A stretch of DNA of 64,000 nucleotides from Candidatus Brocadia pituitae (GCA_017347445.1 AP021856.1:750613-814612); one strand, 5' to 3'; shown: positions 8,823-58,655, counted from the first letter of the stretch. Notes: generated by a model from the sequence alone, not told the origin. A program made the numbers and translations.

Positions 8823-8851
8823 AACAACTTTCTTTAAGCGTTTACGATAAT

Positions 8852-29866: not shown

Positions 29867-29874
29867 CTAAAAAT

Positions 29875-29962
29875 CCCCCTCACCCTAACCCTCTCCCGCA
29901 AGGGGAGAGGGAATATAAGCAATCTCCCCGCCCTTGATGGGAGGGGACAAAGGGGAGGGTGA
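29875..29962. repeat. Palindromic element, family B, between res and mod
   Basis: TCACCCT...AGGGTGA termini; internal hairpin CCCTCTCCC-GCAA-GGGGAGAGGG; related partial copies near 39306-39352, 52465-52503 and 57236-57270. Confidence 0.75.
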
Positions 29963-30008
29963 TAATTTTCATTCCCCTTTGTATCTTTCAGACATGTAAG
30001 TTTCATAG

Positions 30009-32033: not shown

Positions 32034-32080
32034 TTTAGTATCCTCTACATTTTATTGTTTGACCTGCATGGGTATCTCGA

Positions 32081-33115: not shown

Positions 33116-33214
33116 CGTGATATTAGACGATAAATAATTTCCATGTAAATAAATTCAAGGATGTTTTTAGCAAGTCTGCTTAGGCCTTCCCATGTTTTTT
33201 GCACTACCACTTTA

Positions 33215-33316
33215 TAGTAAACGTATTAAATAAGCTGACATGTGCTGGTCATTGCGAGCGACAGCGAAGCAATCCCACTATAGAGATTGCTTCGAGCTGG
33301 CGCCCTCGCAATGACA
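33215..33316 (+). repeat. Palindromic REP/MITE-like element, family A
   Basis: GTCATTGCGAG...GAAGCAATC...GATTGCTTC...CTCGCAATGAC nested inverted repeats. Confidence 0.85.
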
Positions 33317-33347
33317 ACTTTCTTTATGTGTTTACTATAGATCACCG

Positions 33348-36251
33348 TTACTTTAGTATCCAGCGAATCGTAAACAATGACACTTCGGACACCGTTTGCT
33401 TTAACTTCTTTTCAATCTCGTCAATCAAATCATCTTTTTTAAGCTCGATCTCTTTAGCAGCTTGATCATATTCCTTCCATGCCTCATCACGCTTATTTTC
33501 GAGCAGTCGTTTTTCTTTCTCGTGTTTTAGCTTTTCCGGCAGATTAGGGGACAACCTCGACTGTTTTTTCAATTCCTTTATCTGCTCGTCAAGTTCTCTT
33601 AAGAGAAGCCTGAGGGAATTTCTTCTATCTTCCCCCCACTTATCCAATTTATCAAGTTCTGCCTCAAAATAGTTGGTATTCTTAAGGCTTATACTATCAA
33701 TGATTTCATTCTTCCTTCTTTCGGACTGTAATTTGACTTGTTCTATTATATTTCCATGATCCTCTCTTTTAATGGAAAATTCCTGTGCCGGCAAAGAGAA
33801 TAAGCGGTGGCATTGACCTTCCTCAAGGAAAGAGCCATCGTCACAGATACCGGATAATATGACATAATCTTCTGTTTCAAACGATGTAATAGTAAGATTA
33901 ATCACAGAGAGCCAGCCTGATTTACCAATAAGAGCTTCCAGTATGGAAATTTTTGTTGGTGTATCTGAATAATTAAAAATAAGTCCGCTTTGGTTATCCG
34001 GGGCGGTCTCAACATGAAAAGATTTGCATTGTTCAATAATACGTTGTGCTAAAGGATGTCCGATCCTGTAAATATTGACGTCTTCAATGTTCTTGCCAAG
34101 TCGATAGTGTCCCGGATGTATCTTTTCTTCTGTGAAAGGATTTTTCCGTAGGGTAAAAGAATACTCATCTGGTACAAAATCAGCATAAGGTTCAAGGTAG
34201 TATTTGGTAATCTGCCACAACCAGTTTTCGTATTGTGTCAGGTATTCCTTGCTTTCACGCAGGCTTACCTTTAATTTTTCATGCACTTCTTCGTCAAAAT
34301 TCTCCAGTAATTTTTGTCTGGCAGTTTTCAGGTGATCTTCAATGTGTTCCTCTAACTCCCTTTGTAACTGGTCAAATGAAGACTGTATCTCTTCAGGAGT
34401 CCTGCAATTCTGGTAAATCTGTGCAATGCGCTTTTCAAAATCAACCCCCGACTCGATGCTTCCCAATACTTCATCGCTAGCGCCAAAGACGCCGCTAAAA
34501 AGTCTGAATTTTTCGGCCAATATCTGGTAAACCCTCTGGTCTGCTGCATTGTTTTTGTTCAAAAAATTCACCACAACCACGTCAAATTTTTGTCCATAGC
34601 GATGACATCGCCCAATCCTCTGTTCAATGCGCTGTGGATTCCATGGCAGGTCGTAATTTACCACAAAAGAGCAAAATTGCAGGTTGATACCTTCGGCAGC
34701 GGCCTCGGTTGCTATCATAATTACCGCCTCATCTTTAAAGTAATCAACGATTGCAGCGCGCAAATTCGCCGTCTTTGAGTCTGTTACCGTATCGGTATCC
34801 TTATACTTTTCCAGCCATTGCCGATAAATTTCTCGTGATTTTGGATCGCTGTTAGAACCGTTGAATAGAACTATCTTCCCTTTAAATTCTGTACTTTCGA
34901 GAATATTTTTCAGGTATTCCTGTGTTCGTGTTGACTCAGTGAAGATAATAGCCTTCTTATTACCGCCCAGACGTTCTGTCTCCGCAAAGCCTTTTTTGAG
35001 CGCTGTCAACAGAACTTCACCTTTTGAGTTTCGGGTAATAGACTTTGCAAGCCACTCAAATTCCCTGAGATCGTGAATCTCTTTCTTCATGCTCCTGATC
35101 TCTTCGGGAGAATATTGTCTTTCCTGCTCAGTGGGAAGTGGTTGCGGTTCTTCCTCATCTTCCTGCCATTCGTCCTTTAATTCATCAAAGGTTTCAAGAT
35201 TCTGCGCTATATATTTTTCCACTTCTTCGTCTAATTGTTCTTGCCTTTCCACAATATTTTCAAGCTTATTCGCCAGGGCTTCTAACGTCCCCGATATTGC
35301 AAAGGTAGATGATGCCAGTAATTTTCTCAGAATCAAGGTCATCAATTGTCGTTGACTCGGAGGAAGGGCAAAAAGGTCTTCTCTTTGAAGATAGGATGAC
35401 ACCAGATCATAGAGTTTTTGTTCATCAAAAGACGGGATAAACTCCTGTGTTATTGCCATTCTATTCGTGTATTTAACATATTCCAGGACCTGGTGGCGAA
35501 GTGTTCTTATACAAACAGGCTTCAATCGTTCTTTCAGGCTATAAAAATCGTTCTCATCGGCTAACCTGGAATACTGGCTCTTAAAACTCTTTACATCACC
35601 AAAGGTATAATCGTCAATGACACTCACGAGACCATAGAGTTCTAAGAGAGAATTCTGGAGTGGCGTTGCCGTAAGGAGAATCTTGGGAACGTTGGCAACG
35701 GCATTTTTGACGGCATTGGCAATTTTATTTGATGGCTTATAAACATTTCTCAAGCGGTGGGCTTCATCAATAACCACTAAATCCCAGTTGATATTTTTAA
35801 TGTAAACATCTTTAGCCCGTGCAAAATGGTATGAGCATATGACTATTTCATTCTGATTGAAGGGATTTAAGTTTCTATTTTTGATTTCCTGATTAAAAGA
35901 AGACGTTTCCAATATAAGGGATGAAAGGAAAAATTTATCCAGTAATTCCTGATTCCATTGTTTACGCAGATTTGATGGTACGATGACCAGAATTTTTCGT
36001 TTTCTTTCAGCCCATTTTTGAGAGATAACCAGACCTGCTTCAATGGTTTTCCCCAGTCCTACCTCATCCGCCAGTATAGCGCCCTTGGAAAGCGGGGAAT
36101 GGAAGGCAAATAAGGCTGCCTCAACCTGATGTGGATTTAAATCTACCTGGGCATCTAAAAGAGAAGAAGCCAGTTTTTGTAAGCTATCTGATGAGCTGCG
36201 TTTTGTGAGTTCGAATGTAAAATATTTGGCATGATAAGGCGTTATTTGCAT
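33348..36251 (-). CDS. SNF2-family helicase/ATPase associated with the type III RM genes
   Basis: LADEVGLGKT, DEAH, TATP, QRIGRCHRYGQ motifs; C-terminal coiled coil. Confidence 0.93.
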   Translation of the reverse strand: MQITPYHAKYFTFELTKRSSSDSLQKLASSLLDAQVDLNPHQVEAALFAFHSPLSKGAILADEVGLGKTIEAGLVISQKWAERKRKILVIVPSNLRKQWNQELLDKFFLSSLILETSSFNQEIKNRNLNPFNQNEIVICSYHFARAKDVYIKNINWDLVVIDEAHRLRNVYKPSNKIANAVKNAVANVPKILLTATPLQNSLLELYGLVSVIDDYTFGDVKSFKSQYSRLADENDFYSLKERLKPVCIRTLRHQVLEYVKYTNRMAITQEFIPSFDEQKLYDLVSSYLQREDLFALPPSQRQLMTLILRKLLASSTFAISGTLEALANKLENIVERQEQLDEEVEKYIAQNLETFDELKDEWQEDEEEPQPLPTEQERQYSPEEIRSMKKEIHDLREFEWLAKSITRNSKGEVLLTALKKGFAETERLGGNKKAIIFTESTRTQEYLKNILESTEFKGKIVLFNGSNSDPKSREIYRQWLEKYKDTDTVTDSKTANLRAAIVDYFKDEAVIMIATEAAAEGINLQFCSFVVNYDLPWNPQRIEQRIGRCHRYGQKFDVVVVNFLNKNNAADQRVYQILAEKFRLFSGVFGASDEVLGSIESGVDFEKRIAQIYQNCRTPEEIQSSFDQLQRELEEHIEDHLKTARQKLLENFDEEVHEKLKVSLRESKEYLTQYENWLWQITKYYLEPYADFVPDEYSFTLRKNPFTEEKIHPGHYRLGKNIEDVNIYRIGHPLAQRIIEQCKSFHVETAPDNQSGLIFNYSDTPTKISILEALIGKSGWLSVINLTITSFETEDYVILSGICDDGSFLEEGQCHRLFSLPAQEFSIKREDHGNIIEQVKLQSERRKNEIIDSISLKNTNYFEAELDKLDKWGEDRRNSLRLLLRELDEQIKELKKQSRLSPNLPEKLKHEKEKRLLENKRDEAWKEYDQAAKEIELKKDDLIDEIEKKLKQTVSEVSLFTIRWILK

Positions 36252-45016: not shown

Positions 45017-46363
45017 GTGGAAGAAGCGAAGCCAGAAGACACAGTGTCTGAAATTGAAGGCTTAAGAATGCCGTTGGGAGCGCATCTTGAAGAGTTACGG
45101 AGACGGGTCGTATATTCTCTTATCTCAATTGTTCTCTGTTTTATCTTGTGCTGGTTTTTTAAAGTCCAGATACTGGATATGGCCAAAAGACCTCATAAAT
45201 TTGCCATGGAAAAGGTAGGCCTTTCAACAGAATTGCAGGTGCTGAGCTACCAGGAGGGCTTCTATGCGTATATGAAATTGTGCTTCATAACGTCGGTTTT
45301 TTTGGCCTATCCCTTTGTGATATACCAGATATGGCAATTTGTCAGCGCCGGCCTTTATAAAAAAGAGCAAAGGTACGTGCTATTGTTCCTCCCTGTCTCA
45401 TATGCAGCATTTGTGGTTGGCGGACTCTTTGGGTATTTTTTACTCATTCCCTTTGGTCTGCAATTTTTAATCGGCATCCTTGGTCCCGGTATTCAACCTA
45501 TCATCACGATGAAGGACTACGTCTCCTTCGTTTTCATGCTCACGGTTGCACTAGGTTTGGTGTTTCAGTTGCCGCTTGTTATGCTGCTTCTTTCGAAGAT
45601 CAGATTCATCACCCCTGATAAATTTATTGCATGGAGAAAGTACGCCATTCTGGTAATTTTTATTATTGCCGCTATTGTCACGCCGCCCGACCCTTTTACC
45701 CAGTCGATGACCGCTATTCCTATGATTGTCCTCTATGAGCTGGGAATACTCATCGCACGGCCCACAAAGAAGGGATTTTTCCTTTTAGGCACCATCGTTG
45801 GAGGGGGGATTCTGCTGTTGTTAATGTTTTATTTTTATTTTACCCACAAGGGAGGCGAAGTCAATCTGCTAGACACCCGGGGAGAGGTTCAATTTTTGCA
45901 TCCTGAAGGGCAGGAATGGGAAAAGGTGGCAAACCATACCCGTTTCCGGAACGGCGTTACCCTGAAAACCGGCAGTGAAGGGATGACCGCTCTCTCTACC
46001 AGAAAGGGTATTGATATAGGTATGGATGCAAATACCGAAGTGCATATTGTTGATTCTTTGAAGTTAAGGATGAAATCAGGCCAGATCCTCATTTCGGTAA
46101 AGGGGTTAAAAACACCACTGGAAATTGATACGCCAAATGGGCGGATTAGGACCGAACGGGGAACGTTAAATATTGTGGCAAAGGATTTTATTACCATTGT
46201 AACTGCGGTGAAGGGTGATGCCGTTCTGGTCACAGAGGGTGAAGAAAAAAAGTTACTGGAAGGACGTCAGCATAAGATGTCCATTGGCGGTGAGCCCGTT
46301 GACATTGGTGCTATTATTAATTGGTCTGAAGGCGTGATCAACAAATCAGCGGGTGGAGAATAA
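45017..46363 (+). CDS. tatC: TatC with an extra TM and a C-terminal FecR-like domain
   Basis: MPLGAHLEELRRR, YQIWQFVSAGLYKKE, FQLP, TPPDPFTQ, LYELGI; then a 7th TM and a FecR-like beta domain (LKTG...GQILISV...LEIDTPNG...TIVTAVKG). Confidence 0.93.
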   Translation: MEEAKPEDTVSEIEGLRMPLGAHLEELRRRVVYSLISIVLCFILCWFFKVQILDMAKRPHKFAMEKVGLSTELQVLSYQEGFYAYMKLCFITSVFLAYPFVIYQIWQFVSAGLYKKEQRYVLLFLPVSYAAFVVGGLFGYFLLIPFGLQFLIGILGPGIQPIITMKDYVSFVFMLTVALGLVFQLPLVMLLLSKIRFITPDKFIAWRKYAILVIFIIAAIVTPPDPFTQSMTAIPMIVLYELGILIARPTKKGFFLLGTIVGGGILLLLMFYFYFTHKGGEVNLLDTRGEVQFLHPEGQEWEKVANHTRFRNGVTLKTGSEGMTALSTRKGIDIGMDANTEVHIVDSLKLRMKSGQILISVKGLKTPLEIDTPNGRIRTERGTLNIVAKDFITIVTAVKGDAVLVTEGEEKKLLEGRQHKMSIGGEPVDIGAIINWSEGVINKSAGGE

Positions 46364-46402
46364 CTGTATTAATTAGTGTCATTGGATTATGTCTTGCAAA
46401 GT

Positions 46403-46448
46403 GTGACATGACACACTTGTGTGATGGCACATAAGTGTGCCATGTCAC
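46403..46448. promoter_or_regulatory. Compound palindrome: enhancer-binding-protein UAS or tatC terminator
   Basis: GTGACATGACACACTT-N14-AAGTGTGCCATGTCAC (15/16 match), built from TGTGNCA units, followed by a T-run. Confidence 0.55.
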
Positions 46449-46573
46449 GCTTTTTTCGTACGCTTTTAAAACGTTCATTCCCTCAAGTATTGCTCTTTAT
46501 ATAATTACAACTTCAATCTAAAAAAGGCCTTATATCACATATAGCATGAATAGCCCTTGTTTTTTCTTTTTCA

Positions 46574-46589
46574 TGGCATTTGTATTGCT
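46574..46589 (+). promoter_or_regulatory. Sigma-54 (-24/-12) promoter
   Basis: TGGCATTTGTATTGCT: GG-N10-GC with TGGCA and TTGCT consensus. Confidence 0.75.
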
Positions 46590-46616
46590 TTTTATCTTAA
46601 GTCAGCTACATGAATG

Positions 46617-46737
46617 CATCACGACAATGGTAAACCATGAGTGATCTTGGGGCGCAAGGAAAAGGGTCTTGTGGGCCGTTAAACAGCCTAAACTGTTCAA
46701 AACGGCTGAGATAAAGATAGCCTTACTCCCGAAGATG
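46617..46737 (+). ncRNA. c-di-GMP-I (GEMM-I) riboswitch aptamer
   Basis: P1 CATCACG/CGAAGATG, GGTAAACC, GTGA (GNRA) loop, GGGGCGCAAG, AGGGTCT...AGATAGCC, conserved C before the P1 3' strand; long P2 hairpin GCCGTT/AACGGC. Confidence 0.85.
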
Positions 46738-46774
46738 TGTTACAGAAAATCTTTGCAGTAAGGCTTTTGTTTTT
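46719..46774 (+). terminator. Riboswitch expression-platform intrinsic terminator
   Basis: AGCCTTACT (46719-46727) pairs with AGTAAGGCT (46757-46765), followed by TTTGTTTTT; the 5' arm overlaps the aptamer. Confidence 0.75.
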
Positions 46775-46789
46775 AAAGGATAAACGTAT

Positions 46790-48751
46790 ATGAATACTAT
46801 TTTCTCCTGCGTCTTCCGTACGAAGGACCATCTGTGCCGCATACTGCCCCTATTTTTATTCAGTCTCTCTGCCTTTGTGTCCCCTCTCCTTGCGGTATCA
46901 AACGATACGGAACCTGGCGTACATTTTGTTCGTGGCATTTTGCCCTCCCGGCAATATTTTGAAAACCATGAGATCCAGCGCTATGCTGTTGTGATTGGCA
47001 TATCGGATTATAAGGATCCGGGGATAGCCGATCTGGAATATGCGGACGCTGATGCCCAGGTATTTTATGATTTTCTTACCAGCCCGGCCGGTGGTGATTT
47101 CAAGAAAGAACACGTCTTGCTCCTGAAGAATGAGCAGGCAACCCTGAAAAACGTCACCCTTGCCATTACCAATTTTCTTAAAAAGACAAATGACCCTGAT
47201 TTTGTCGTCATCTTCATGGCATGTCATGGCGAGCCGGAACCTGACCGCCCCGGCAATCTCTATTTACTCATGCACGATTCTGAGCCCGGCAGCTTGTCTG
47301 CAACTGCTTATCACATGGAAGATGTCAATGCTGACATGAAACGATACATTTCGGCAAAGAGGCTTGTTTTATTTGCAGATGCCTGCCACAGTTCGGGGCT
47401 TGGCGAAGGTATCATGAATACCCGGGGAAGCACAAATACGATTCCTGCAGCGCTTTCCACACTCAAATCAACGAGGGAGGGATGGGGAATTGTAAGTGCA
47501 AGCAGGGCAAGGGAAGTTTCAAGGGAGTCACATCAGTTTGGTGGCGGTCATGGGGTATTTACTCACTACCTGCTGGAAGGTTTACAAGGAAAAGCCGATG
47601 CGGAAGGAAACAAAAATGGGATCGTTACCCTTACGGAGGCATTCGATTTTGTGGCTGAAAATGTGAAAAAGGCAACGCACAACGCACAGCATCCTGACCT
47701 ATCAGGAAATTTCGACAATAACCTTCCCCTGGGATTTCCCGGAGTAGAAACCGGCACCAAAGGAACTGCCCAAAAGACAGCTATGCCACCCTTAGGCGTT
47801 CTGAAAATTCATGGCATGCCCGAAGGGTCACGGGTATATATAAAAGGAAAAGAGGTCGGCGTCACCCCTCTGGACCTAAAACTCATGAGCGGGACATATC
47901 CTGTTAAGATAAAAACGAGAGGCCATCCCGATGTGTCGGAGACGGTATTTGTTAATCCCGATGAATTGACGGAGATCTGTGCTGAGCAACTCTTTGAGCG
48001 ATTCTATTTTGGGGCGGAATCCGGCACCTCCAGCGGCACCCATCTGGCCTATGCCGGGTCGGGCGGATACGCGCCGGATTACCTGGAATCGGATGATAAA
48101 ACGCATGATGTTGCACCAGCAAAAGCTATGTCCCCTGGCAGCGCTCCGACACCACAGGCAGAAACGGTGCACAAGCAGGCAGATTTGCAGAAAACAAAGG
48201 AAAACATCGATACACTCATAAAAGAACTAGAGATCATGGCAGAGAAACAAACCAGGGGAGAAAAACCCATGCCTGCTAAAAAACCGGGAGAAAAGAGACA
48301 TGAAACCGCAGACGTTCCACACTGCGTCCCTATATCTCTTAAGGAATTTAATGTAAAAATGGGCGCGTTATCAAACAGACATACCACGGAATTGCTCCGG
48401 CAAAGGATTATTGACGCCCTCTTGTCCCAAAACGGCTTACATGTGATGGAAAGGGATTTGGAATTGCAGGAGGCGATTTTACGGGAACAAAGGCTCGGTG
48501 GCTCTATGCTTGCCGATGAGCTGTATAGAATTGAGCTGGGAAAGATACAGGGAGCCCAATTCCTCTGTTTTGGAGAAGTATATCCGGGAAAAACGCCCGA
48601 TCAGCACATAGTAAGAATAGAATTGGTTGACACGGCAACAACGCTTATCGATACGCTTGAATGCGCCTTTCGGAGTGAAGAAGATCCGGGGGCCGTGGCA
48701 CGTGATATCGCCGCAAAGATGAAGGCAAAGATTGTCGCAAAAAGAAAATGA
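46790..48751 (+). CDS. Secreted caspase-like (C14, clan CD) peptidase + PEGA + CsgG-like domain
   Basis: Signal peptide; YAVVIGISDY, FMACHG (His), FADACHS (Cys); PEGA-like GSRVYIKGKEVGVTP; C-terminal VMERDLELQEAILREQRL...RIELVDTAT. Confidence 0.9.
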   Translation: MNTIFSCVFRTKDHLCRILPLFLFSLSAFVSPLLAVSNDTEPGVHFVRGILPSRQYFENHEIQRYAVVIGISDYKDPGIADLEYADADAQVFYDFLTSPAGGDFKKEHVLLLKNEQATLKNVTLAITNFLKKTNDPDFVVIFMACHGEPEPDRPGNLYLLMHDSEPGSLSATAYHMEDVNADMKRYISAKRLVLFADACHSSGLGEGIMNTRGSTNTIPAALSTLKSTREGWGIVSASRAREVSRESHQFGGGHGVFTHYLLEGLQGKADAEGNKNGIVTLTEAFDFVAENVKKATHNAQHPDLSGNFDNNLPLGFPGVETGTKGTAQKTAMPPLGVLKIHGMPEGSRVYIKGKEVGVTPLDLKLMSGTYPVKIKTRGHPDVSETVFVNPDELTEICAEQLFERFYFGAESGTSSGTHLAYAGSGGYAPDYLESDDKTHDVAPAKAMSPGSAPTPQAETVHKQADLQKTKENIDTLIKELEIMAEKQTRGEKPMPAKKPGEKRHETADVPHCVPISLKEFNVKMGALSNRHTTELLRQRIIDALLSQNGLHVMERDLELQEAILREQRLGGSMLADELYRIELGKIQGAQFLCFGEVYPGKTPDQHIVRIELVDTATTLIDTLECAFRSEEDPGAVARDIAAKMKAKIVAKRK

Positions 48752-48827
48752 CCAGAATTCCTCATTTTTACGAGAATTGATGCAAGTCAACCGTCCCGGT
48801 GGCATCATAACGCAACAAAGCTGATGG

Positions 48828-49898
48828 ATGGAGGTGAGCGGCATGAAGAGAAATAGCTTGCACGCAAAAATCAGATGCAATGCACTCATGGTGTTCCTGG
48901 TATCGCCTTTTATCAGCGGCGTTACCCTTTTTTCAGCCACTGCAAAGGATACGACGCCGCCTGTGGTACAGACGGACGTAACAACCGCAGTGATCTATGA
49001 TACAAACCTCTTCCTGAGTGGCGAGGCTCTCGATGAGAGCGGTGTTGCCCAGGTCTTCGTAAATGAATGTCCTCTGGAAATCCGCGCTGGAAGGCGCGTC
49101 TTTTCCAACCATTTACACATCCTTGATAAAGGGGAAAATATCATCACCGTGAAAGCCATTGATGCAAACGGAAACACCTCGGCACCTTCACCGGTGAAAA
49201 TTATCAGAAAGTCCTTCGCTCTGCCGGAGACAGGTTTCCGGTATGCCGTTGCCCTGCTTCCGGTAAAGACCTTTGCAGAACGGGAGATGCCCACAGAGGC
49301 CATCTCCTCCCTGCTCCTGAAGGCATTCAGTGAAGAACCGAAGAGGTTTCATTTTGTAGAGCGGGATCATGCAAGACTCGAAGAAATCCTCCGTGAGCAA
49401 AAAATTAGCGCTACCGGGCTTCTATCTTCCGATACCGCCATCAAGATCGGCAGGATCGTCGCCGCAGACGGGATATTCTTGGGAACGGTAGATGAAGATG
49501 CCGGCGGCATGGGCATTACCTTGCGTCTCGTGGATACCGAAACGGCCCGCATACGTGCAACTGCCAGGGTGCATACGGAAGATAAGAGCATAGAAAATCT
49601 CGAATGGCTTGTCTATGGTCTGTCTTTGAAGATAAAGCAGCAGCTTCCCATGATGCAGGGAAGCGTTATTCGTGTTTCTGACCGGGGTTTTTACGTCAAT
49701 GCAGGCTCTGCAAATGGCATAGAGGTGGGTATGAAATTATTACTCTTCCGTGAAATCCGGGAAGGGAATTTCGTTTTAAAAGAACCGCTTGATACGGTTG
49801 CACGGGTGGCGCGGGTTTTGCCCCATACTTCCTTTGTTGCCATCACCAGAGAAGGCAGTTCAAAAGTGAAAAAGGGAGACTTTGTCTTGCTAAAGTAA
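48828..49898 (+). CDS. Secreted Ig-like + CsgG-like + FlgT-C-like protein
   Basis: DTTPPVV Ig domain; FVERDHARLEEILREQK...AIKIGRIVAADG...LRLVDTET; VNAGSANGIEVGMKL tail. Confidence 0.8.
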   Translation: MEVSGMKRNSLHAKIRCNALMVFLVSPFISGVTLFSATAKDTTPPVVQTDVTTAVIYDTNLFLSGEALDESGVAQVFVNECPLEIRAGRRVFSNHLHILDKGENIITVKAIDANGNTSAPSPVKIIRKSFALPETGFRYAVALLPVKTFAEREMPTEAISSLLLKAFSEEPKRFHFVERDHARLEEILREQKISATGLLSSDTAIKIGRIVAADGIFLGTVDEDAGGMGITLRLVDTETARIRATARVHTEDKSIENLEWLVYGLSLKIKQQLPMMQGSVIRVSDRGFYVNAGSANGIEVGMKLLLFREIREGNFVLKEPLDTVARVARVLPHTSFVAITREGSSKVKKGDFVLLK

Positions 49899-49975
49899 AA
49901 GGTAGCCTGATTGTATAGGAATTTCAAAGTTGTTGCAGAGCGAAGAGCTTCTTTGTTCTCCATGGAAAAGCAGTA

Positions 49976-50066
49976 CACCGAATATCGAACAGGGAATGAT
50001 GAGGTAGGGACAAGGAGCACCGTGTCCCTGCTAAATTCCTTGTTCTGCGGTTCGGTGTTCTCTTTA
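49976..50066. repeat. Imperfect palindromic spacer element
   Basis: CACCGAATATCGAACAGGGAAT...ATTCCTTGTTC...TTCGGTG; the same GAATATCGAACAGGGAAT-ATGA occurs at about 58614-58636. Confidence 0.55.
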
Positions 50067-50136
50067 CACTGCTGTCGCGAATATCTATTTAAACTGCGGA
50101 AACAAAGAAAGGTCTCGTGAGTTGAAGGTGTAACAC

Positions 50137-52326
50137 ATGGTAAAGACCTTTTGCCAAATATTCAAATTCATCGTTATGTTACCCGTATTTCTCTTGCCTT
50201 TTGCAGGATGTACAACGACTTCTCAGATCGGCACGGACAACTGGCGGGATTATTTTGAGCCGGGCCACACGAAAGAGGAGATTGGCAGAGATTTCAACCT
50301 TCATAGGGGTAAGTGGTGGAACTATTACATCCGTGGCCGCTGGTTTGCCGACGGTGGGCACTATGATGAGGCCGTCCGGGACTTTCAAAAGTCTATCAAT
50401 CTGAGAAGCCGTGACCAGCGTTCAGCCAGGAGTTACGGGATGCATTTTTGGGAATACTTTGCCCATCGTGAGCTGGGGATTGTGTATTACCATCAGGAAA
50501 GGTTTGCAGATGCGAAAAAGGAGTTGGAAACATCCCTTTCAACGGCAGATTCTGCTCGTGCCAAATTTTACCTGAACAAATGCAACGAGAGAATCCTGAA
50601 AGAAACGAAGAGAGACCGGCAGCCGCCGGTGATACAAATCACCTCTCACACCGGTGGGGAGATTGTCAATACGCCCGTGGTAGAGTTGCAGGGGGCCGCT
50701 ACCGACGATTCCTATGTAAACAGCATGTTTGTTCAGGAGAGACGGCTCTTCATAGAACTTGCCGAAAGGGCGCTTCCGTTTGATGAAACCATTGCCCTGC
50801 AACCGGGAGAAAATCTGGTTCGTCTGGAGGCAACAGACCTTTCGGGCAAAAGCGTCCAGCGGGATTTGAAACTCACACTGGATCTGCGTCCACCGGTTTT
50901 GTATCTGGATGATATACAAATACAGAAAAGAGACGGCAGGAATATTGCCGTTGTCACGGGAACTATCACGGACGATAATGGGGTGCAGCGTCTCTCTATT
51001 AACGACATCGAGATACCCATTCCTCCGGATAAAGCGGTGAATTTTAAACAGGATGTTGTCCTGACGGACGGCCATAAATTCTCAGTAAAAGCAGTCGATG
51101 TGGCTGGTAACGAAACAATGGGCGAAGAGCAGTTAGACATTAAGGCATCACTGTGGCCCGGCGGCATATGGGACAAGCACATCCGGCACGCGCAACGGAC
51201 AACGGGTAAGCCTGTCATGGTTGCCCAAGGCAAAATGGACGGGGCTGAAGTAAAGAGGATGCTGGCTTCTTACGACACAGGCGCACCATCAGCTTTTACA
51301 AGTCCTTCCTCAGGAAACGCTGAAAATGCAGGAAAGGAAGCAAAAGGGGCTTCGGTCTCACCGGTAGTGGCGAAAGACACTGTCCCTCCGGTAGTATATA
51401 CTGATTTAAAAGCTGCGATTGTCCATGACGCAACCCTCTTCTTCGGTATCCACGCGCACGACGATGGCGGTGTTGCCAGGCTCTTTGTCAATCAGCAGCC
51501 TTTAGAGATCCGCCCGGCGAAGCACGTCTTCCTCAATCACCTGTTGACGCTCAGCGAAGGAGAGAATACCGTACTGGTAAAAGCCGTTGATACCCAGGGA
51601 AACGAAACGCAGCTTGCACCGGTGAAAATTACCAGAAAGGCCTTTTATCTGCTGGAAACGGATGCCCGGTATACCGTGGCGTTGCTTCCGTTAAGGACGT
51701 TTGCAGCAGACGGGGTTCTCCCGGAGACCCTCTACTCACTGTTGCTCAGGTCATTTGATGAAGAGCCGAGGAGATTTAACTTTGTGGAACGTGACCGGGC
51801 AAAACTTGAGGAGATCCTTCGTGAGCAAAAGATTAACGATAAGGCGCTTACTTCTCCGGATGCAGCCATAAGGGTTGGGAAGATCCGCGCAGCCGAGGGC
51901 ATGCTCTTTGGCGCGGTGGAAGAGAATGCGAAGGGTATTAACGTTACCCTGCGGCTGGTAGATACGGAAACAACCCAGGTACTGGTCAATACGGACGTAT
52001 ACAGCGAGGATAAGAGTGCGGAGAATCTTGCATGGCTTATGCATGGTTTGTCACTCAAGGTGAAACGGCAATATCCCATGGTGCAGGGAAGCATTATCCG
52101 TGTTTCGGGGAATGGATTTCATGTCGATGCCGGCGCAACGAGCGGTATCAGGATAGGTATGAAATTGCTCATCTTTCGGGAGATACAGGAGGGTAATGTT
52201 GTGATAAAAGAACCCCTGGATACTATTGCCCGAATAACACAGATAGAGACTGAAACCTCGTTTGCCAGAATCAGCAGCAAAGGGAATAAAAAGATAGAAA
52301 AGAAGGACTGTGCTATCACGAAGTAA
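50137..52326 (+). CDS. Lipoprotein with TPR, three Ig-like domains and CsgG/FlgT-like module
   Basis: Lipobox FAGC; TPR helices (YYIRGRWF..., HRELGIVYYHQ); repeated Ig domains; C-terminal about 310 aa paralogous to 48828..49898. Confidence 0.85.
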   Translation: MVKTFCQIFKFIVMLPVFLLPFAGCTTTSQIGTDNWRDYFEPGHTKEEIGRDFNLHRGKWWNYYIRGRWFADGGHYDEAVRDFQKSINLRSRDQRSARSYGMHFWEYFAHRELGIVYYHQERFADAKKELETSLSTADSARAKFYLNKCNERILKETKRDRQPPVIQITSHTGGEIVNTPVVELQGAATDDSYVNSMFVQERRLFIELAERALPFDETIALQPGENLVRLEATDLSGKSVQRDLKLTLDLRPPVLYLDDIQIQKRDGRNIAVVTGTITDDNGVQRLSINDIEIPIPPDKAVNFKQDVVLTDGHKFSVKAVDVAGNETMGEEQLDIKASLWPGGIWDKHIRHAQRTTGKPVMVAQGKMDGAEVKRMLASYDTGAPSAFTSPSSGNAENAGKEAKGASVSPVVAKDTVPPVVYTDLKAAIVHDATLFFGIHAHDDGGVARLFVNQQPLEIRPAKHVFLNHLLTLSEGENTVLVKAVDTQGNETQLAPVKITRKAFYLLETDARYTVALLPLRTFAADGVLPETLYSLLLRSFDEEPRRFNFVERDRAKLEEILREQKINDKALTSPDAAIRVGKIRAAEGMLFGAVEENAKGINVTLRLVDTETTQVLVNTDVYSEDKSAENLAWLMHGLSLKVKRQYPMVQGSIIRVSGNGFHVDAGATSGIRIGMKLLIFREIQEGNVVIKEPLDTIARITQIETETSFARISSKGNKKIEKKDCAITK

Positions 52327-52352
52327 ATTATCGTAAACGGTGAAAGAAAAGG

Positions 52353-52443
52353 TATCATTGCGCTGGTGTTAGCCCGAAGCAATCTCTCCAGTGGGATTGC
52401 TTCGCTGTCGCTCGCAATGACCAGTACATATCAACTTATTTAA
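52353..52443 (-). repeat. Palindromic element, family A (inverted copy)
   Basis: Reverse complement closely matches 33228-33316. Confidence 0.85.
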
Positions 52444-52933
52444 CTGTTAAGGAATTTCAAGCAATTTCCTCCCCCTCGATGGGGAGGTTAGGTGGGGGTG
52501 ATCGAGCGGTGAGAGAGGAGTATCAACATATAGCTAAAATTCTGAGAAAAAGGTCTACCGGTGTAATGGTAATTTTATTTCACCCCTTCAGGGTTGTGTA
52601 TTTTATCTGCCCATGGTTCTATAATCATTTCAGCCCTTCGGGCTTTTTTACTGCAGAGCGGATTTTGTTTTTCTTACGTGTGGATACCTGCAGGTACGCA
52701 TCTACAGAGAAAGGTGTTTTTCAAAAAGCTAAAGCTTGAACCCGCAGGAAGCGTTAGACCAAGGATATCTTTGTAAAAAAAGAGAGGTTCGGCCAATTAT
52801 ACAATTCCTCAAACGATATGAACTAAATGATCAAAAGGCTTAATAATCGATCTCAATAATACAGAAATTAATGGCCAAAAATACAAAAAGCAGTAACTCT
52901 AAACGTTAAATCTGAAACACGAATGGTGTCAAT

Positions 52934-54283
52934 ATGAGATTCATACGGCCTCTTTTTATGTTACTGTTTGCTTGTAGTGTTATACAACAGCACCAGACCT
53001 CTTTTGCTCAAACAGTACCTCCCACCATAAATGCGATTCCCCTTCCCATTGGTTCAGGCGCAAGGGCATTAGGCATGGGCGGGGCATTTATTGCCGTTGC
53101 CGACGATGCCACGGCGGCATCGTGGAACCCCGGAGGTCTGACACAACTGGAACGGCCAGAACTCTCTGTAGTAGGCTCTTTCTTATCTACACAACAGGAT
53201 TGGAATCCTGGCAGTACCGGATTGTTGTCATTGGATCAAGAGAGAATATCGTCAGGTGACTTGAATTATGCCAGTGTTGCATATCCATTTAGGGTCTGTG
53301 GGAAAAACTTAGTTGCCGCCTTGAATTATCAGCAGAAATACGATTTTCACATAGAGTTTGATTATGATCGGATATTTGAAGACCCAGAGGCTAAATTTTT
53401 TGATAAGTCATCAACCGATTTTAAATCAAGGGGCGGAATAGCAGCCCTGACACCTTCCATCGCTCTGCAGGTGATACCAAAATTGTCACTTGGCATAGCC
53501 GTAAATTTTTATACCGATGAATTATTCGGAGACTTTGCATGGAGAGGAAAATTCAAAAGAATAACCAAGGGGTCGAATTCAGGTAATGATTTTAGCAGTT
53601 CATTTAATGAAGAACAAACATTTAAAAATTTTCAGGCAGTCAATGTAACGGTAGGTATGCTCATGAACGTGTGGGAAAGGGAGGAGAAACATCTTACCTT
53701 TGGTGCTGTTTTCCATTCCCCCTATACAGCAGATATGGATCGTATTCTAGATAGTGTGTCTGTTGGAATTGATGAAACCGGAACAACTATAGACATAAAA
53801 CATTTACCAGAACATTTTAAAATAGATTTTCCCATGTCCTTTGGCGCTGGTCTGGGTTTCCGTTATACCGATGCCTTATCCTTTTCTTTAGACGTGACGT
53901 GGACCGATTGGTCTGAATTTGAACAAGAGGATGAGCTTGGCAATGAGTCGCGTCCGTTAGGTTTTGTATCTACCGACCGGGAAATTGATGATACCCATGC
54001 AGCGAGGTTTGGTACAGAATACCTGATATTCCGGCAAAAGATGATTATTCCCGTGCGTGGGGGATTTTTTTATGAGCCTCGTCCCTCCTTAGACGACTCT
54101 ACAGATGTATATGGCGTTAGCGTGGGCAGCGGCATTACCTCTAAAAGGTTTAGCATTGACGCTGCCTATCAGTTCCGGTGGGCAAACGACGTAGATGGTG
54201 AAGATTTTGGCGGTGTTCTTAATGGGACTCATTTTGATCTCAACGAGCACCTGTTCCTCGCCTCCGTCATTGTGTATTTTTGA
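52934..54283 (+). CDS. FadL/OmpP1/PorV-like outer-membrane beta-barrel
   Basis: Signal peptide; GSGARALGMGGAFIAVADDATAASWNPGGL hatch motif; C-terminal VIVYF beta-signal. Confidence 0.88.
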   Translation: MRFIRPLFMLLFACSVIQQHQTSFAQTVPPTINAIPLPIGSGARALGMGGAFIAVADDATAASWNPGGLTQLERPELSVVGSFLSTQQDWNPGSTGLLSLDQERISSGDLNYASVAYPFRVCGKNLVAALNYQQKYDFHIEFDYDRIFEDPEAKFFDKSSTDFKSRGGIAALTPSIALQVIPKLSLGIAVNFYTDELFGDFAWRGKFKRITKGSNSGNDFSSSFNEEQTFKNFQAVNVTVGMLMNVWEREEKHLTFGAVFHSPYTADMDRILDSVSVGIDETGTTIDIKHLPEHFKIDFPMSFGAGLGFRYTDALSFSLDVTWTDWSEFEQEDELGNESRPLGFVSTDREIDDTHAARFGTEYLIFRQKMIIPVRGGFFYEPRPSLDDSTDVYGVSVGSGITSKRFSIDAAYQFRWANDVDGEDFGGVLNGTHFDLNEHLFLASVIVYF

Positions 54284-54386: not shown

Positions 54387-54815
54387 ATGCGTTTAAGAAA
54401 CAGGTCTACACAGTTTTATGGGTTGATGGCAGTATTTGTTCTGTTGTTCAGTGTATCGATTTGTGGGTGCATAACGATTACTATTAATGAGTGTTGTCAA
54501 GGCTCGTGTAAAGTCGCTTCTGGAGGGGGTGGAACTACTCCTACACCATGGCCTAATCCGGGAAGATTTTATGGAAAGGTAACAAGTGGTCCGAGCGGTC
54601 AAGGTATAGGTGGTGCGCAAATGGCCTTTGATGGTCCTAGCGATACGACTAAGATTAGAAATGCCGATGGCACTTATACGAGTAACTTGATGGCTCCAGG
54701 TACTTACACAATAACCGTTACTGCTTCTGGTTATAAAACAATAACCAACAAAGGGGTATCTTTACCGCCGGACGGGTATGTAAAGAAAAACTATTCGATG
54801 ACTCCAAATCCATAA
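54387..54815 (+). CDS. Probable lipoprotein with carboxypeptidase-regulatory-like beta-sandwich
   Basis: Lipobox-like ICGC; GKVTSG...IGGAQ...DGTY...PGTYTITVTASGYKT. Confidence 0.75.
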   Translation: MRLRNRSTQFYGLMAVFVLLFSVSICGCITITINECCQGSCKVASGGGGTTPTPWPNPGRFYGKVTSGPSGQGIGGAQMAFDGPSDTTKIRNADGTYTSNLMAPGTYTITVTASGYKTITNKGVSLPPDGYVKKNYSMTPNP

Positions 54816-54932: not shown

Positions 54933-55886
54933 ATGAAAATAGCGATCCTAAAGCGATTATTCAGGCCATGTAATCAGTTTTTTTTTCTTACAATGTTGAT
55001 TTCAATCTTCATAATATCAGGTTTTGCGTATACCAAAGAAGCAAGTGAGCCAACACCATCACCAGACAGTCAAGCATCCAAAGAAACGCCCACGAAAGAA
55101 AAAGATGTGGTTAAGCCAGTACCGCTACAGGACTACCTGATCAAAATACCCTCTGTTGAAAGAATCGAGGGCATTGCCTGGGACGAGGGCAAAAAAAATC
55201 TTTTCGTGTTAGATGGCGAGAAGAAAAAAATCGATAGGATTAATCCTATTTCAGGCCAACTTTTACAATCACTTGTTTTCGATCCGGTACAATTATTTGT
55301 CTTGGATCAGAAAAACTTAAAAGGTTTAGCCTTTGATAGAGAAGCAAAAGTATTATGGGTTGCCGCTGAAGAAAAAGCCAAAGAAAAAAAAGCCCCGATC
55401 TTGATTATGGTTGATCCCGTGAGTGGAAAGACAATAAAAACAATAGACATGGAAATCCCCGAAGAGAAAGGGTTTGATTCCATTGAGGGCATTACCTGGG
55501 ATGAGAAAAGGAAAGACCTCTGGGTTGCTATTTATGCAGGGTTTTCGAGTTCGTTTAACCAGATTAATCCTGAGACCGGAGAGATCATAAGAAGTGTATT
55601 TGCTGACTGTTATCCCCGGGGTATTGCAACGGATGGAGAAAACCTCTGGAGCATTTGTTACAACGGTGAGAAATTCCCTTCAAAAATAGATAAGAGAAAA
55701 ATACAAGAAAAAGATTATGAAATGTTTCATTCGCGTACCTTCATCGAAGACATACCGGAGGCCAAACAGCCGACCAGCCTTGTTTTTGACGGTACACATC
55801 TCTGGTACGCAGACAGAAAAACAAAGAGTGCCATAAGGTTTACGCCACCTGTTACCGCACCTGATAAGACACCTGTTAAAAAGTAA
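54933..55886 (+). CDS. Exported beta-propeller protein (YncE/glutaminyl-cyclase-like)
   Basis: Repeats IEGIAWDEG, KGLAFD, IEGITWD, RGIATDG, TSLVFDG each followed by LW; signal peptide. Confidence 0.75.
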   Translation: MKIAILKRLFRPCNQFFFLTMLISIFIISGFAYTKEASEPTPSPDSQASKETPTKEKDVVKPVPLQDYLIKIPSVERIEGIAWDEGKKNLFVLDGEKKKIDRINPISGQLLQSLVFDPVQLFVLDQKNLKGLAFDREAKVLWVAAEEKAKEKKAPILIMVDPVSGKTIKTIDMEIPEEKGFDSIEGITWDEKRKDLWVAIYAGFSSSFNQINPETGEIIRSVFADCYPRGIATDGENLWSICYNGEKFPSKIDKRKIQEKDYEMFHSRTFIEDIPEAKQPTSLVFDGTHLWYADRKTKSAIRFTPPVTAPDKTPVKK

Positions 55887-55915: not shown

Positions 55916-56965
55916 ATGCAAAGATATTTAAAGAGATTTTATTATATCTCTCTGCTATGTTTTATTCTTTTTGGAGGCTGCACCACATTTGAATACACAC
56001 GTGTACCTACATCTGAAAAGAAGTCGGCACTAAAGCATAGTCATTGTTATAGTTGTTTATGTAGTATGCCTGAGCCTATTCCTGAATCCATACTTGAAGA
56101 AACTATATCTGAAGAATCTCTGTCTAAAACCACACCGGCATCTAAAACTGGCCCCACAAGGAAATACGCAGTTTTAATCAGTGCCGGTGTAACCAAAGCA
56201 GATAATTCATGGGGTGATTCCGAATATTGGTATGACCTCGTATCGCAATATCAGCTGTTGAAGGATCATGGGTTTGAAGATGGCAATATTTATGTCCTTT
56301 ACGGTACCGGAACAGATTTTGTATCCGGCAATCACAAATATAATTCTGCAAGACGATTTGGACATTCAATTACTAAAGCTGCTGCTAATGCTACGGATGC
56401 TGCCGTTACCAAGGCCAATATCGAAGGCGTGTTCAAGGAATTAAATGGCAAAGTAACGAAAAATGACCATTTGTATGTATGGTGGATGGGACATGGTTCG
56501 TCTCTCCCAAGAGATCCTTGTTACCTTTCCCTTTTCATTGGTTATACGGACGAACATGTTCATTCTCTTGATGATGAAGAATTGAGCAAATACATTGGCC
56601 TTGTTTCAAATTATAAAAAACGTACTATTGCAATAATGACCTGCCACTCTGGCGGTTTCATTGATGATATGAGTATTGTAGATAATAAAACGGTTACCCT
56701 TGTATCATCAAAATGTGAAGAATCTTCTTATTCTTATGTTAATTCATCAGCCTGTGATGATATTTTCCATGCAGAATTTAATTATACCCTAACAAACGCA
56801 CTACGTCAGAAGGACCCATGTGATTCACCCATTCTATCAAACACATATAGAGATGGTTATGTATCATTATTGGAAACACATCAATATAATGAAAAAGAAA
56901 TGGCATGGTCAACCCCTCTGATGGGCGATCCTGATGGGATAAGTCGTTTGGAACCATTTAAATAA
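55916..56965 (+). CDS. Lipoprotein with clan CD (legumain/C13-like) cysteine peptidase domain
   Basis: Lipobox FGGC; KYAVLISAG, LLKDHGF..NIYVLY, WWMGHG (His), IMTCHSGGF (Cys). Confidence 0.8.
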   Translation: MQRYLKRFYYISLLCFILFGGCTTFEYTRVPTSEKKSALKHSHCYSCLCSMPEPIPESILEETISEESLSKTTPASKTGPTRKYAVLISAGVTKADNSWGDSEYWYDLVSQYQLLKDHGFEDGNIYVLYGTGTDFVSGNHKYNSARRFGHSITKAAANATDAAVTKANIEGVFKELNGKVTKNDHLYVWWMGHGSSLPRDPCYLSLFIGYTDEHVHSLDDEELSKYIGLVSNYKKRTIAIMTCHSGGFIDDMSIVDNKTVTLVSSKCEESSYSYVNSSACDDIFHAEFNYTLTNALRQKDPCDSPILSNTYRDGYVSLLETHQYNEKEMAWSTPLMGDPDGISRLEPFK

Positions 56966-57071
56966 GGACGAACCATACATAACTCTTTCATTGGGTGCAT
57001 TCCCAATTTTTTGTAAATATTCGCACTTGCCTGTCGGCTAACATATTGTATCGCAAATATCTTGCATGATT

Positions 57072-57104
57072 AACCCTGACAGGGTTTGGAACCCTGTCAG
57101 GGTT
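57072..57104. repeat. REP-like double palindrome
   Basis: AACCCTGACAGGGTT-TGG-AACCCTGTCAGGGTT. Confidence 0.8.
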
Positions 57105-57338
57105 GTTTTTCCAGACCCCATTACAGTTGCAAAAAACAGGAATGCTCCCGATAAAACAAAAACACTTGCAATTTTCTTTGCTTCTGCTAAATTAACTGGA
57201 TGTATAGTATTTCAAAGTATCTATTATGGCGACCAAACACCCCCCTGAGTTCCCCTTTTCTAAGGGGGTTGTGTTTTTTTGCTGGCATTGCCATGCATCT
57301 GAAAGTCGCTGCTAAAGGCAGCCTAATGTAATATAATC

Positions 57339-58517
57339 ATGATCAAAAAGTCATTCACTTTCTTCGTACCGTTAATGCTGCTGGTAATGCTGGCGGCAAC
57401 ACCGCTCCGTGCCCAACAACATGTTGCGCGCCGGTTAGGGCATCCCTCCACGCGCTTTGCCGATCCGGTCCATACCATTGAAGAGTTGCGCGCCCGGTTA
57501 ACCTCGGAAGCGCTCTTTGCCGACATTGATGGTGTCCTGAATCTCTGCGACGGCTGGCAGGGTAGCATTGAGGATTTCCGTTATGCGGCGACGACTGCTC
57601 CGGTTACAGAGCTGCAAATCCCCGTCGGTACCCGCCTGCCGGCAATGTCCTCGCGCAAGAATGGCAAGCCGATTCTGATCCATGACTTAATTTGGGGGGG
57701 GGAGGAGCCAATCGATGCCTATGAATTCTCCTTTTACTCCAAAGGCCGCCGTTATCGTTGTGTGACGCCTAAACTCTGCTGCAATTTCTGGGTTGAAGAC
57801 CTCGGCCCGGACACCCGCACCCCTGCCCTGACGATCGAGTGTAATACACCAGAGGAGATTCCGGTTCACCGCACTGTGCGGGTCTGCCTGACCGTGAAGA
57901 ATACCGGTGATGCGCCGGAGGAGTTAGTTACCGTAACGCTGCCAGTTCCCGCGGGTGCGATATTCACAAAACCAGACGGCACAACTCGTACCGATGCACG
58001 CCGCATTATCTGGCGTATTCCCCATCTTGCACCCGGCATGAGCAAACTCCTCTGCGCAAACTTTATCGTGCAACAACCCGGAGCTCTGCTGTTTGCCTCC
58101 ACCGCGCGCGGCTCCATTGCCCAGCCGGTGGATACGCAGTGTGCCACCCACGTCACCGGCATCCCTGCGATTTTACTTGAGGTCATTGACCTTGATGACC
58201 CTATTGAGGTAAACCAGCAGGAGACCTATGAACTCAGCGTAATCAATCAGGGTTCGACCATGCTTACTAATGTGACAATAGTTTGTACACTGGAAGACGA
58301 CCAGGAGTTTGTGTCGGGGACTGGCGCGACGACCGCCCAGGCGCAAGGCCGTATCATAACCTTTGCACCACTGTCCACACTCTCACCAAAGGACACGGCC
58401 AAATGGCAAGTCGTCGTAAAGGCCCTTACCGCTGGTGACGTCCGCTTTACAACAGAACTCACGAGCGATCAATTCAAACGCCCCATCAGCGAAACAGAGG
58501 CAACCCGGCAATATTGA
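57339..58517 (+). CDS. Secreted protein with two DUF11/OmcB-like Ig domains
   Basis: Signal peptide; LTVKNTGDAP and LEVIDLDDPIEV...YELSVINQGS domains. Confidence 0.8.
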   Translation: MIKKSFTFFVPLMLLVMLAATPLRAQQHVARRLGHPSTRFADPVHTIEELRARLTSEALFADIDGVLNLCDGWQGSIEDFRYAATTAPVTELQIPVGTRLPAMSSRKNGKPILIHDLIWGGEEPIDAYEFSFYSKGRRYRCVTPKLCCNFWVEDLGPDTRTPALTIECNTPEEIPVHRTVRVCLTVKNTGDAPEELVTVTLPVPAGAIFTKPDGTTRTDARRIIWRIPHLAPGMSKLLCANFIVQQPGALLFASTARGSIAQPVDTQCATHVTGIPAILLEVIDLDDPIEVNQQETYELSVINQGSTMLTNVTIVCTLEDDQEFVSGTGATTAQAQGRIITFAPLSTLSPKDTAKWQVVVKALTAGDVRFTTELTSDQFKRPISETEATRQY

Positions 58518-58655
58518 ACAACAGAGCAAGCGGCAAGGGGTTGCGTTCCTTTTCCAGCGATGTTTGGTGGGAGATACCCCATAAGCGCTCAGTTGTTTTG
58601 ATAGTCCAACATCGAATATCGAACAGGGAATAATGAGCGTTACAGGATAATAGTC

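Follow-up and report, generated by a model that had tools for sequence, protein, structure and literature searches.

The window of this study is the whole stretch of 64,000 nucleotides (nt) analysed here from the anammox planctomycete Candidatus Brocadia pituitae (GCA_017347445.1 AP021856.1:750613-814612), in which we examined a gene cluster headed by a predicted exported caspase-family protease. Three consecutive open reading frames (ORFs), here called g1, g2 and g3 and coding for 653, 356 and 729 amino acids (aa), are located on the + strand between 46790 and 52326, the positions given for them by an initial annotation of the sequence. That annotation described three exported proteins ending in one CsgG-like alpha/beta domain, and proposed an envelope complex that positions a protease during aggregation driven by cyclic di-GMP (c-di-GMP). 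The N-termini, which we read by eye, consist in each case of a basic and then a hydrophobic stretch, in agreement with export; we take g1 to be Sec-exported, and the compartment of all three is inferred from these sequences.

g1 (46790-48751, +) was assigned by Pfam, NCBIfam, orthologue alignment and profile comparison. It is composed of a signal peptide, a Peptidase_C14 domain, a PEGA domain, a low-complexity linker with a conserved helix and a C-terminal CsgG/FlgT-N-like domain (residues 513-653, nt 48326-48748). In Pfam the Peptidase_C14 match (PF00656, residues 64-306) reached E 2e-15 and 57.6 bits against a cut-off of 21.4, and the PEGA match (residues 336-396) E 1e-12; the NCBIfam caspase_w_EACC1 domain gave 95 bits, under its subfamily cut-off of 140. 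The dyad consists of His146 (nt 47225-47227) and Cys199 (nt 47384-47386), lying in the motifs ACH146G and DAC199HSSG. No residue of these motifs, His146-Gly147 and Cys199-His200 included, varies among 15 aligned g1 orthologues of 32-75% identity. By family profile and dyad motifs g1 is a Peptidase C14 member and a predicted clan-CD (C14) cysteine protease, and the intact His-Cys caspase and the PEGA domain described earlier are indeed carried by one protein. A PDB sequence search with g1 alone gave no match, and the only caspase-family match of its profile in PDB was a weak one, Arabidopsis metacaspase-4 (6W8S).

The closest genome match of g1 was found in Candidatus Brocadia sp. DTUAMX2 (94% protein identity). 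Full-length orthologues are limited to Brocadiales, including Brocadia, Jettenia, Kuenenia, Wunengus, Anammoxibacter and groundwater lineages. In the window's clade g1 is without an N-terminal domain of about 100 residues found in the orthologues elsewhere. For the non-Brocadia orthologues we considered that this extra domain might be FecR-like and akin to the FecR domain fused to TatC, encoded upstream of g1. The idea was rejected, because none of five fragments matched FecR in Pfam with E up to 10 and BLASTP against the C-terminus of TatC returned nothing. In the orthologues linked to CHASE2 genes (see below) the domain belongs to no recognisable family.

g2 (48828-49898, +) encodes an exported protein with an Ig-like domain and a FlgT-like module, identified by Pfam, alignment with g3 and AlphaFold/Foldseek. 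Translation probably starts at the ATG at 48843, which gives a protein of 351 aa, the length of the orthologues. Pfam matches were CsgG (E 2.6e-7, 30.6 bits against a cut-off of 20.8), weaker LpoB and FlgO, and the Ig-like domain that had been ascribed to one of the three proteins. g3 (50137-52326, +), assigned by Pfam, alignment with g2 and synteny, encodes a lipoprotein with the lipobox FAG/C, the Cys of which is kept throughout the g3 family; TPR repeats, three Glucodextran_B/Big_13 Ig-like domains and a FlgT-like module (CsgG E 3.8e-6, above the gathering score) were found in it by Pfam. The module is formed by an alpha/beta domain and a beta-barrel, at residues 130-272 and 273-356 in g2 and at residues 503-645 and 646-729 in g3.

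Without gaps, 326 residues of g2 align to g3 residues 404-729 with 54% identity, consistent with the earlier description of g3 as a TPR/Ig lipoprotein whose C-terminal part duplicates g2. On this alignment g2 is a truncated paralogue of the g3 C-terminus, duplicated from g3. The duplication is detectable at the protein level only; internal DNA repeats were considered as the source of the shared motif and rejected, only short repeats at chance level being found. g2 is present only in a subset of Brocadia species, forming one subclade, and always with 351 aa. The ratio of non-synonymous to synonymous substitution rates (dN/dS) was 0.24-0.30 in comparisons with three other Brocadia species and 0.49 in that with the nearest relative, from which about 5% of synonymous sites differ; g2 is intact and, by the ratios with the three species, under purifying selection. 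Relatives of g3 come nearly all from Brocadiales. In PDB, g2 alone had no sequence match, and the profile of the g2 and g3 family collected TPR and Ig noise only.

The C-terminus of g1 (residues 550-620) is 32-35% identical, across 71 residues, to the corresponding domain in g2 and g3, and a profile of g1 residues 513-653 matched the g2/g3 domain profile with a probability of 98.6% and E 9e-16 across 114 columns. A phmmer search with the same g1 residues against 1.84 billion representative proteins gave 62 matches. The six closest (anammox caspase orthologues or short fragments) were set aside and the remaining 56 were scanned with Pfam: CsgG was present in 52, LpoB in 17, FlgO in 13, Peptidase_C14 in 10, CHAT and FlgT_C in four each and TIR in three. 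On this pairwise, profile-profile and Pfam support, the alpha/beta domain is homologous in g1, g2 and g3 and belongs to the CsgG/LpoB/FlgO/TolB-N superfamily, much as the initial annotation had it.

The AlphaFold model of g2 residues 125-356 (pLDDT 85.6, pTM 0.78) shows an alpha/beta domain and then a small beta-barrel. Its top Foldseek matches in PDB were Vibrio FlgT (3W1E, E 4.8e-13) and FlgT in the LPHT-ring cryo-EM structure 8Z5N, and TolB, LpoB, GNA1162, PelC and CsgG came after them. The alignment with FlgT covers 277 columns with a TM-score of 0.44, a root-mean-square deviation (rmsd) of 14 Å and about 12% identity; some orthologues or relatives of the g2/g3 module also match Pfam FlgT_C or FlgT_M. 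The proposed CsgG/FlgT-like label is upheld by these matches, and with FlgT first for the g2 module, the model makes a FlgT-like two-domain build the more exact description of g2 and g3 than CsgG-like.

Compared with Vibrio FlgT, g2 and g3 have the same build (TolB-N/CsgG-like alpha/beta domain plus small beta-barrel), but the rmsd points to a different orientation of the domains, no flagellar genes were found among the scanned window ORFs or in the syntenic loci, and the g3 module is fused to TPR, Ig and a lipid anchor and paired with a protease. As for CsgG, PelC, LpoB, GNA1162 and TolB-N, the likeness lies in the CsgG scores of g2 and g3 above gathering and in the CsgG-positive relatives of the g1 domain. 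Because the CsgG match covers only model positions 37-98 (g2) and 53-98 (g3) of 210, the shared domain of about 140 aa is, on the profile match, the small alpha/beta part only and not a CsgG channel. The CsgG transmembrane hairpins are missing from the g2/g3 match, which is thus short of a full-length CsgG, and family scans found no curli family among the neighbours in the window or in related loci. Neither g2 nor g3 is a FlgT orthologue or a CsgG channel. FlgT resides in the periplasm and assembles at the outer membrane; LpoB and TolB-N are not known to form rings. By analogy with relatives that form rings (CsgG, PelC and FlgT) or dock to partners (LpoB and TolB-N), an association of these domains is plausible.

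The 5' leader of g1 contains a c-di-GMP-I (GEMM-I) riboswitch aptamer (46619-46733, +; Rfam RF01051/RF03167), which ends 56 nt ahead of the g1 ATG. It was the sole match when the whole window was scanned with Rfam at gathering thresholds, with 37.5 bits for RF01051 against a gathering score of 35. RF03167, a related GGC variant model of the same clan, was the best-scoring model, with 39.7 bits and E 1.7e-6 in the window. At the same site 5' of the caspase gene it reached 63 bits in Brocadia sp. WS118 (L019), above its gathering score of 59, 58 bits in BIN37 (L017) and 54 bits in another Brocadia locus (L007). By nhmmer the same leader sequence precedes the caspase in DTUAMX2 and B. carolinensis, and the riboswitch sequence is kept in 6 Brocadia loci. 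The anammox RNAs read CGCAAAG, against CGCGAAG in the GGC variant consensus, the A being the canonical letter. Our literature search found no ligand for the RF03167 GGC variant, and c-di-GMP is the putative ligand of the leader RNA by riboswitch class.

An expression platform, a terminator hairpin with a U-run (46719-46775, +), was recognised from folding energy and alignment A5, and is located 15-70 nt 5' of the g1 ATG. The hairpin AGCCUUACU(..)AGUAAGGCU, followed by UUUUGUUUUU, has a folding energy of -21.6 kcal/mol (z -3.5); in WS118 the values are -27.5 kcal/mol and z -4.9. The terminator is conserved in alignment A5, with a compensatory change from CTGCC/GCAG to CTACC/GTAG in L015, a Brocadia metagenome-assembled genome (MAG) that keeps a CHASE2 cyclase. 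Judged from sequence and folding, the leader is a c-di-GMP-I-class riboswitch with a coupled expression platform. Since the 5' arm of the terminator is made of the 3' strands of aptamer stems P2 and P1, and so overlaps stems that the ligand stabilises, we predict an ON switch in which the ligand prevents termination. The link to c-di-GMP, which the initial annotation had stated without evidence, thus has a riboswitch directly 5' of g1, in this clade only. c-di-GMP is raised in step with the extracellular matrix in anammox granules (PMC11224092), and c-di-GMP riboswitch control is typical of envelope and motility genes (PMC7266159).

L015 has a second riboswitch copy, the one with the compensatory change (16189-16302, +, 55.4 bits), downstream of the FadL-like gene, preceding an ORF of 514 aa (16491-18035). 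The N-terminus of this ORF reads as a signal peptide, and the copy suggests that some envelope proteins of Brocadia form a small regulon under c-di-GMP riboswitches.

Transcripts of the region were found in wastewater and bioreactor metatranscriptomes, where up to 89% of its sampled 31-mers were present. Contigs cover the leader and the 5' end of g1 (46362-47382), the g1-g2 junction (47725-49150 and 48706-49242) and g3 (50025-52419), and a single contig (52705-57023) spans four downstream genes.

The first of these downstream genes encodes a FadL/TodX-family outer-membrane beta-barrel (52934-54283, +; Pfam Toluene_X E 8e-19, and synteny). It stays below the NCBIfam cut-offs of BamG (73 against 250 bits), PorV_fam (56.6 against 90) and PorV (30 against 250), and has a weak PDB match to 3DWO. 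This gene was overlooked in the initial annotation, and it is the most constant neighbour of g3.

We mapped synteny by tblastn over 23 loci. The ancestral order is CHASE2/class-III cyclase, caspase, g3 and FadL-family barrel, present in Kuenenia, Brocadia MAG_8, two Anammoxibacter MAGs and one groundwater lineage; 3 nt lie between the end of the cyclase gene and the caspase gene in Kuenenia. The order caspase, g3, FadL-like barrel is kept in at least five genera, namely in Brocadia, Jettenia, Kuenenia, Anammoxibacter and groundwater Brocadiales. Jettenia is without g2 and the cyclase, and has the same three genes as the window further downstream (CarboxypepD_reg lipoprotein, propeller-like protein and Peptidase_C13-like protein). 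In the window's clade a TatC-FecR gene is located upstream, the caspase is without its N-terminal domain and g2 has been added; tblastn found no CHASE2 gene in the window. Where g1, g2 and g3 had been taken as a unit conserved together, g1 and g3 proved syntenic across Brocadiales and g2 restricted to one Brocadia subclade. The conserved unit is caspase, g3 and FadL-like barrel, with a second-messenger element in front. The exchange of the CHASE2 cyclase of most genera for the c-di-GMP riboswitch of this Brocadia clade is a natural experiment in second-messenger rewiring.

Pairings of the same domains were also found outside the anammox bacteria, as the initial annotation had suggested checking by neighbourhood search, and fusions occur in other phyla. 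P0284, a representative protein, reads as g1 and g3 joined, its single chain holding a signal peptide followed by Peptidase_C14, TPR, the CsgG-like domain and FlgT_C. An Anaerolineaceae MAG and an Acidiferrales MAG have the CsgG-like domain in the same protein as the caspase, a CHASE2 gene adjoining in the latter, and in a Gemmatimonadetes MAG it is encoded beside the caspase gene. CHASE2 genes flank related caspases in Ignavibacteria, Acidiferrales and another MAG (L033, L050, L067 and L086). Pairings of caspase with the CsgG-like domain and with CHASE2 thus recur in Acidobacteriota, Chloroflexota, Ignavibacteriota and Gemmatimonadota.

Three other relatives (P0295, P0327 and P0280) combine an N-terminal TIR domain, cytoplasmic-looking and without signal peptide, with a caspase and/or CsgG-like domain; either the CsgG-like domain is not always periplasmic or these TIR proteins span the membrane. 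In a 12.8-kb metagenome contig (L006), a Ser/Thr kinase with TPR and a weak CsgG-like match (7654-10098, -) is followed by an FHA-guanylate cyclase and adjoins a distant g3-like gene with a FadL-like neighbour, another signalling link for the domain.

Our preferred reading, held tentatively and at slightly less than an even chance, is a second-messenger-controlled envelope protease module of anammox bacteria, in which g1 is held at the outer membrane through g3 and g2. The c-di-GMP-I riboswitch with its terminator platform would gate transcription into g1, g2 and probably g3. The C-terminal domain of g1, homologous to the N-domain of the FlgT-like modules, would associate with g3 and g2 and hold the protease on a scaffold at the inner surface of the outer membrane, with the lipid of g3 as anchor and the adjacent FadL/PorV-like barrel as working partner. 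Its cleavage of envelope or surface proteins would take place in the aggregated state, in which c-di-GMP is high. A functional link between g1 and g3 is argued from the P0284 fusion and from synteny; a physical association or ring, and the substrate, are what we infer from the domains. The more specific form is possible at best and rather doubtful: an outer-membrane proteolytic assembly in which FlgT-like g3 (and g2 in some Brocadia) co-assembles with the caspase's domain beside the FadL-like barrel, is turned on by c-di-GMP in Brocadia or wired to CHASE2 in other genera, and processes S-layer or matrix proteins during aggregation. Of the original interpretation, the domain labels, the dyad and the c-di-GMP link are retained, and the triad as a conserved unit is given up.

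Several observations weigh against this module. A Sec signal in anammox cells could target the anammoxosome instead. The AlphaFold model of the g1 C-terminal domain alone was poor (pLDDT 70, first strand built as helix) and Foldseek gave no match to it at E <= 0.001, so the assignment of this domain comes from sequence profiles. The riboswitch belongs to the Brocadia clade only and is absent from the CHASE2-headed loci of Kuenenia, Anammoxibacter and the groundwater lineages. Strict co-location is not universal, because in a distant relative (5.1-Mb contig) the caspase and CHASE2 are about 22 kb from a g3/FadL-like pair, the two genes of which overlap. The metatranscriptome contigs are unstranded and may include DNA. 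They break in both long spacers, 49914-50066 between g2 and g3 and 52392-52734 between g3 and the FadL-like gene, where contig depth is 5-10 times higher and repeats are present, and a terminator-like site is located at 52632. Co-transcription, which the initial annotation presupposed for all three genes, is therefore backed by the contigs bridging g1 and g2; for g3 and the FadL-like gene with g1 it is putative, given the breaks in these repeat-holding spacers and the terminator-like site.

The main rival explanation is a signalling device, which we consider unlikely. Caspase, g3 and FadL-like barrel would be the periplasmic input or processing partner of the CHASE2 receptor cyclase, making or destroying a ligand or cleaving the sensor, with cyclic AMP or cyclic GMP as output; in the window's clade the CHASE2 link would have been lost and replaced by c-di-GMP control of expression. 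It draws on the CHASE2/Guanylate_cyc genes directly 5' of the caspase and on the same strand, as close as 3 nt (Kuenenia, Brocadia MAG_8, Anammoxibacter and groundwater Brocadiales), on a CHASE2 gene convergent with the caspase in L003 and on the flanking CHASE2 genes of the four loci outside anammox named above. Caspase-CHASE2 fusion proteins are also reported, in a 2012 survey of prokaryotic caspase homologues that mentions neither PEGA nor CsgG as a partner (PMC3501461) and in a 2021 analysis that places the fusions in conflict systems (PMC8195603). However, the protease genes remain under selection in the window and its nearest relatives, where the locus has no CHASE2. No recognisable family is matched by the extra N-terminal domain of orthologues linked to CHASE2, and a direct caspase-CHASE2 contact is putative.

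Decidedly unlikely, in our view, is that no dedicated complex exists and that these are separate envelope proteins with a promiscuous periplasmic domain, each binding peptidoglycan or outer membrane independently, and neighbours through local duplication (g2 from g3) and shared regulation. The domain does occur in proteins of many unrelated layouts (LpoB, FlgO, TPR proteins, kinases and TIR proteins), g2 has demonstrably arisen by recent duplication, and the caspase is separable from g3 in the distant relative. The order of caspase, g3 and FadL-like barrel nevertheless persists in at least five genera, and P0284 joins caspase, TPR and FlgT-like parts in a single chain; both argue for the module.

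A death or defence effector, in which the protease would kill or arrest the cell after sensing of phage or stress, is highly improbable: the PADLOC generic caspase model matches g1 (E 5e-13) and relatives of the shared domain are fused to TIR and CHAT, but g1 carries an export signal, partners of the NTPase, STAND or EACC kind were not found, system-specific PADLOC models gave no match in g1 or the five other cluster proteins scanned (g2, g3, FadL-like and propeller-like proteins without any match, the C13-like protein with a weak generic caspase match of E 9e-4), the locus has a stable position across an order and not in a variable island, and riboswitch control is typical of envelope and motility genes (PMC7266159).

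Coming back to the preferred envelope protease module, each part can be set beside a known system. g1 shares the C14 domain and the H-G and D-x-C-H-S motifs with orthocaspases and metacaspases (e.g. Microcystis MaOC1), but it is exported, fused to PEGA and a CsgG-like domain, and not linked to NACHT, WD40 or EACC partners. Pseudomonas LapG/LapD and Clostridioides difficile PPEP-1 (Zmp1) are c-di-GMP-linked envelope proteases trimming adhesins; LapG is a DUF920 cysteine protease, and PPEP-1 a metalloprotease behind a c-di-GMP-I (GEMM-I) riboswitch that acts as an OFF switch. They are the closest parallels by logic, an exported protease following c-di-GMP and acting on surface proteins, whereas the components are unrelated, no LapD-type receptor was found here and the predicted switch is ON. 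With PorU and PorV/PorQ of type IX secretion the cluster shares clan-CD proteases (two here) beside a FadL-fold barrel. The barrel scored 56.6 against 90 bits for PorV_fam, the proteases are C14 and C13 and not C25, and no other type IX secretion genes were seen, so the likeness is an analogy only.

Every part of the module belongs to a known family, and similar fusions are already in the databases, unannotated; what is undescribed is how the parts are combined, regulated and conserved throughout the order. No paper on this system came up in literature searches that paired caspase with CsgG or PEGA, anammox with caspase, and anammox with a c-di-GMP riboswitch. Most discussion of caspase homologues in bacteria treats them as effectors of death or immunity in the cytoplasm. 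If the reading is true, an exported caspase on a FlgT/CsgG-type tether behind a c-di-GMP riboswitch would give this family a regulated role in envelope remodelling or signalling (in the more specific form, a non-death and extracytoplasmic role), and would offer a molecular handle on the switch between planktonic and granular anammox growth, which is relevant to wastewater nitrogen removal. Considering the recurrence in other phyla, a function found here would probably generalise.

After the FadL-like gene follow, on the + strand, a small lipoprotein with CarboxypepD_reg, a PEGA-like beta-sandwich (54387-54815), present in the Brocadia and Jettenia clusters; an exported protein with weak beta-propeller-like (SdiA-regulated/SGL) matches (54933-55886), found in Brocadia and Jettenia only; and a Peptidase_C13/legumain-like lipoprotein (55916-56965; Pfam E 1.2e-8, above the cut-off), the second clan-CD cysteine protease by family. 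The last has the lipobox FGG/C, the motifs MGHG and MTCHSGG and a weak PDB match to legumain (6YSA). A strong terminator-like hairpin (57071-57115, +), with a 16-bp stem and a T-run, closes the downstream transcription unit. Upstream of g1, TatC (45017-46363, +; Pfam E 3e-65) carries a C-terminal extension of about 200 residues after an extra hydrophobic segment, FecR-like with 23.8 bits against a cut-off of 24. The TatC-FecR fusion is located 5' of the caspase in four Brocadia loci (L007, L008, L009 and L019); it was not found in B. carolinensis (L010) or in the other genera examined.

Directly after the TatC stop, a long near-perfect palindrome GTGTGACATGACACACTTGTGTGATGGCACATAAGTGTGCCATGTCACGC followed by a T-run (46385-46463, +) is probably the TatC terminator; it also gave spurious miRNA-family matches. 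The spacer 49914-50066 had a depth of 5-8 times that of the flanking genes, and contigs broke on both sides of it in three runs; a joint links 50066 to 52446 via 25 foreign letters, and the sole other match in the window is 29 nt at 58609-58637. This spacer may represent an element present in several copies, or else a small RNA of high abundance. In the spacer between g3 and the FadL-like gene, a dispersed REP-like repeat with GCTCGCAATGAC and a hairpin is located at 52329-52443, coinciding with the 5-10-fold excess of depth and the breaks at 52392-52734, and copies of it are present at 33226-33339 (-) and 8773-8851 (-). Further upstream, a restriction-modification-like block (26957-36251, -) is composed of a ResIII helicase with an endonuclease domain (968 aa), an N6_N4 methylase (673 aa) and a SNF2-family helicase (966 aa). 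Directly past the cluster terminator, a DUF11/CARDB repeat protein, likely of cell-surface type, is encoded at 57339-58517 (+).

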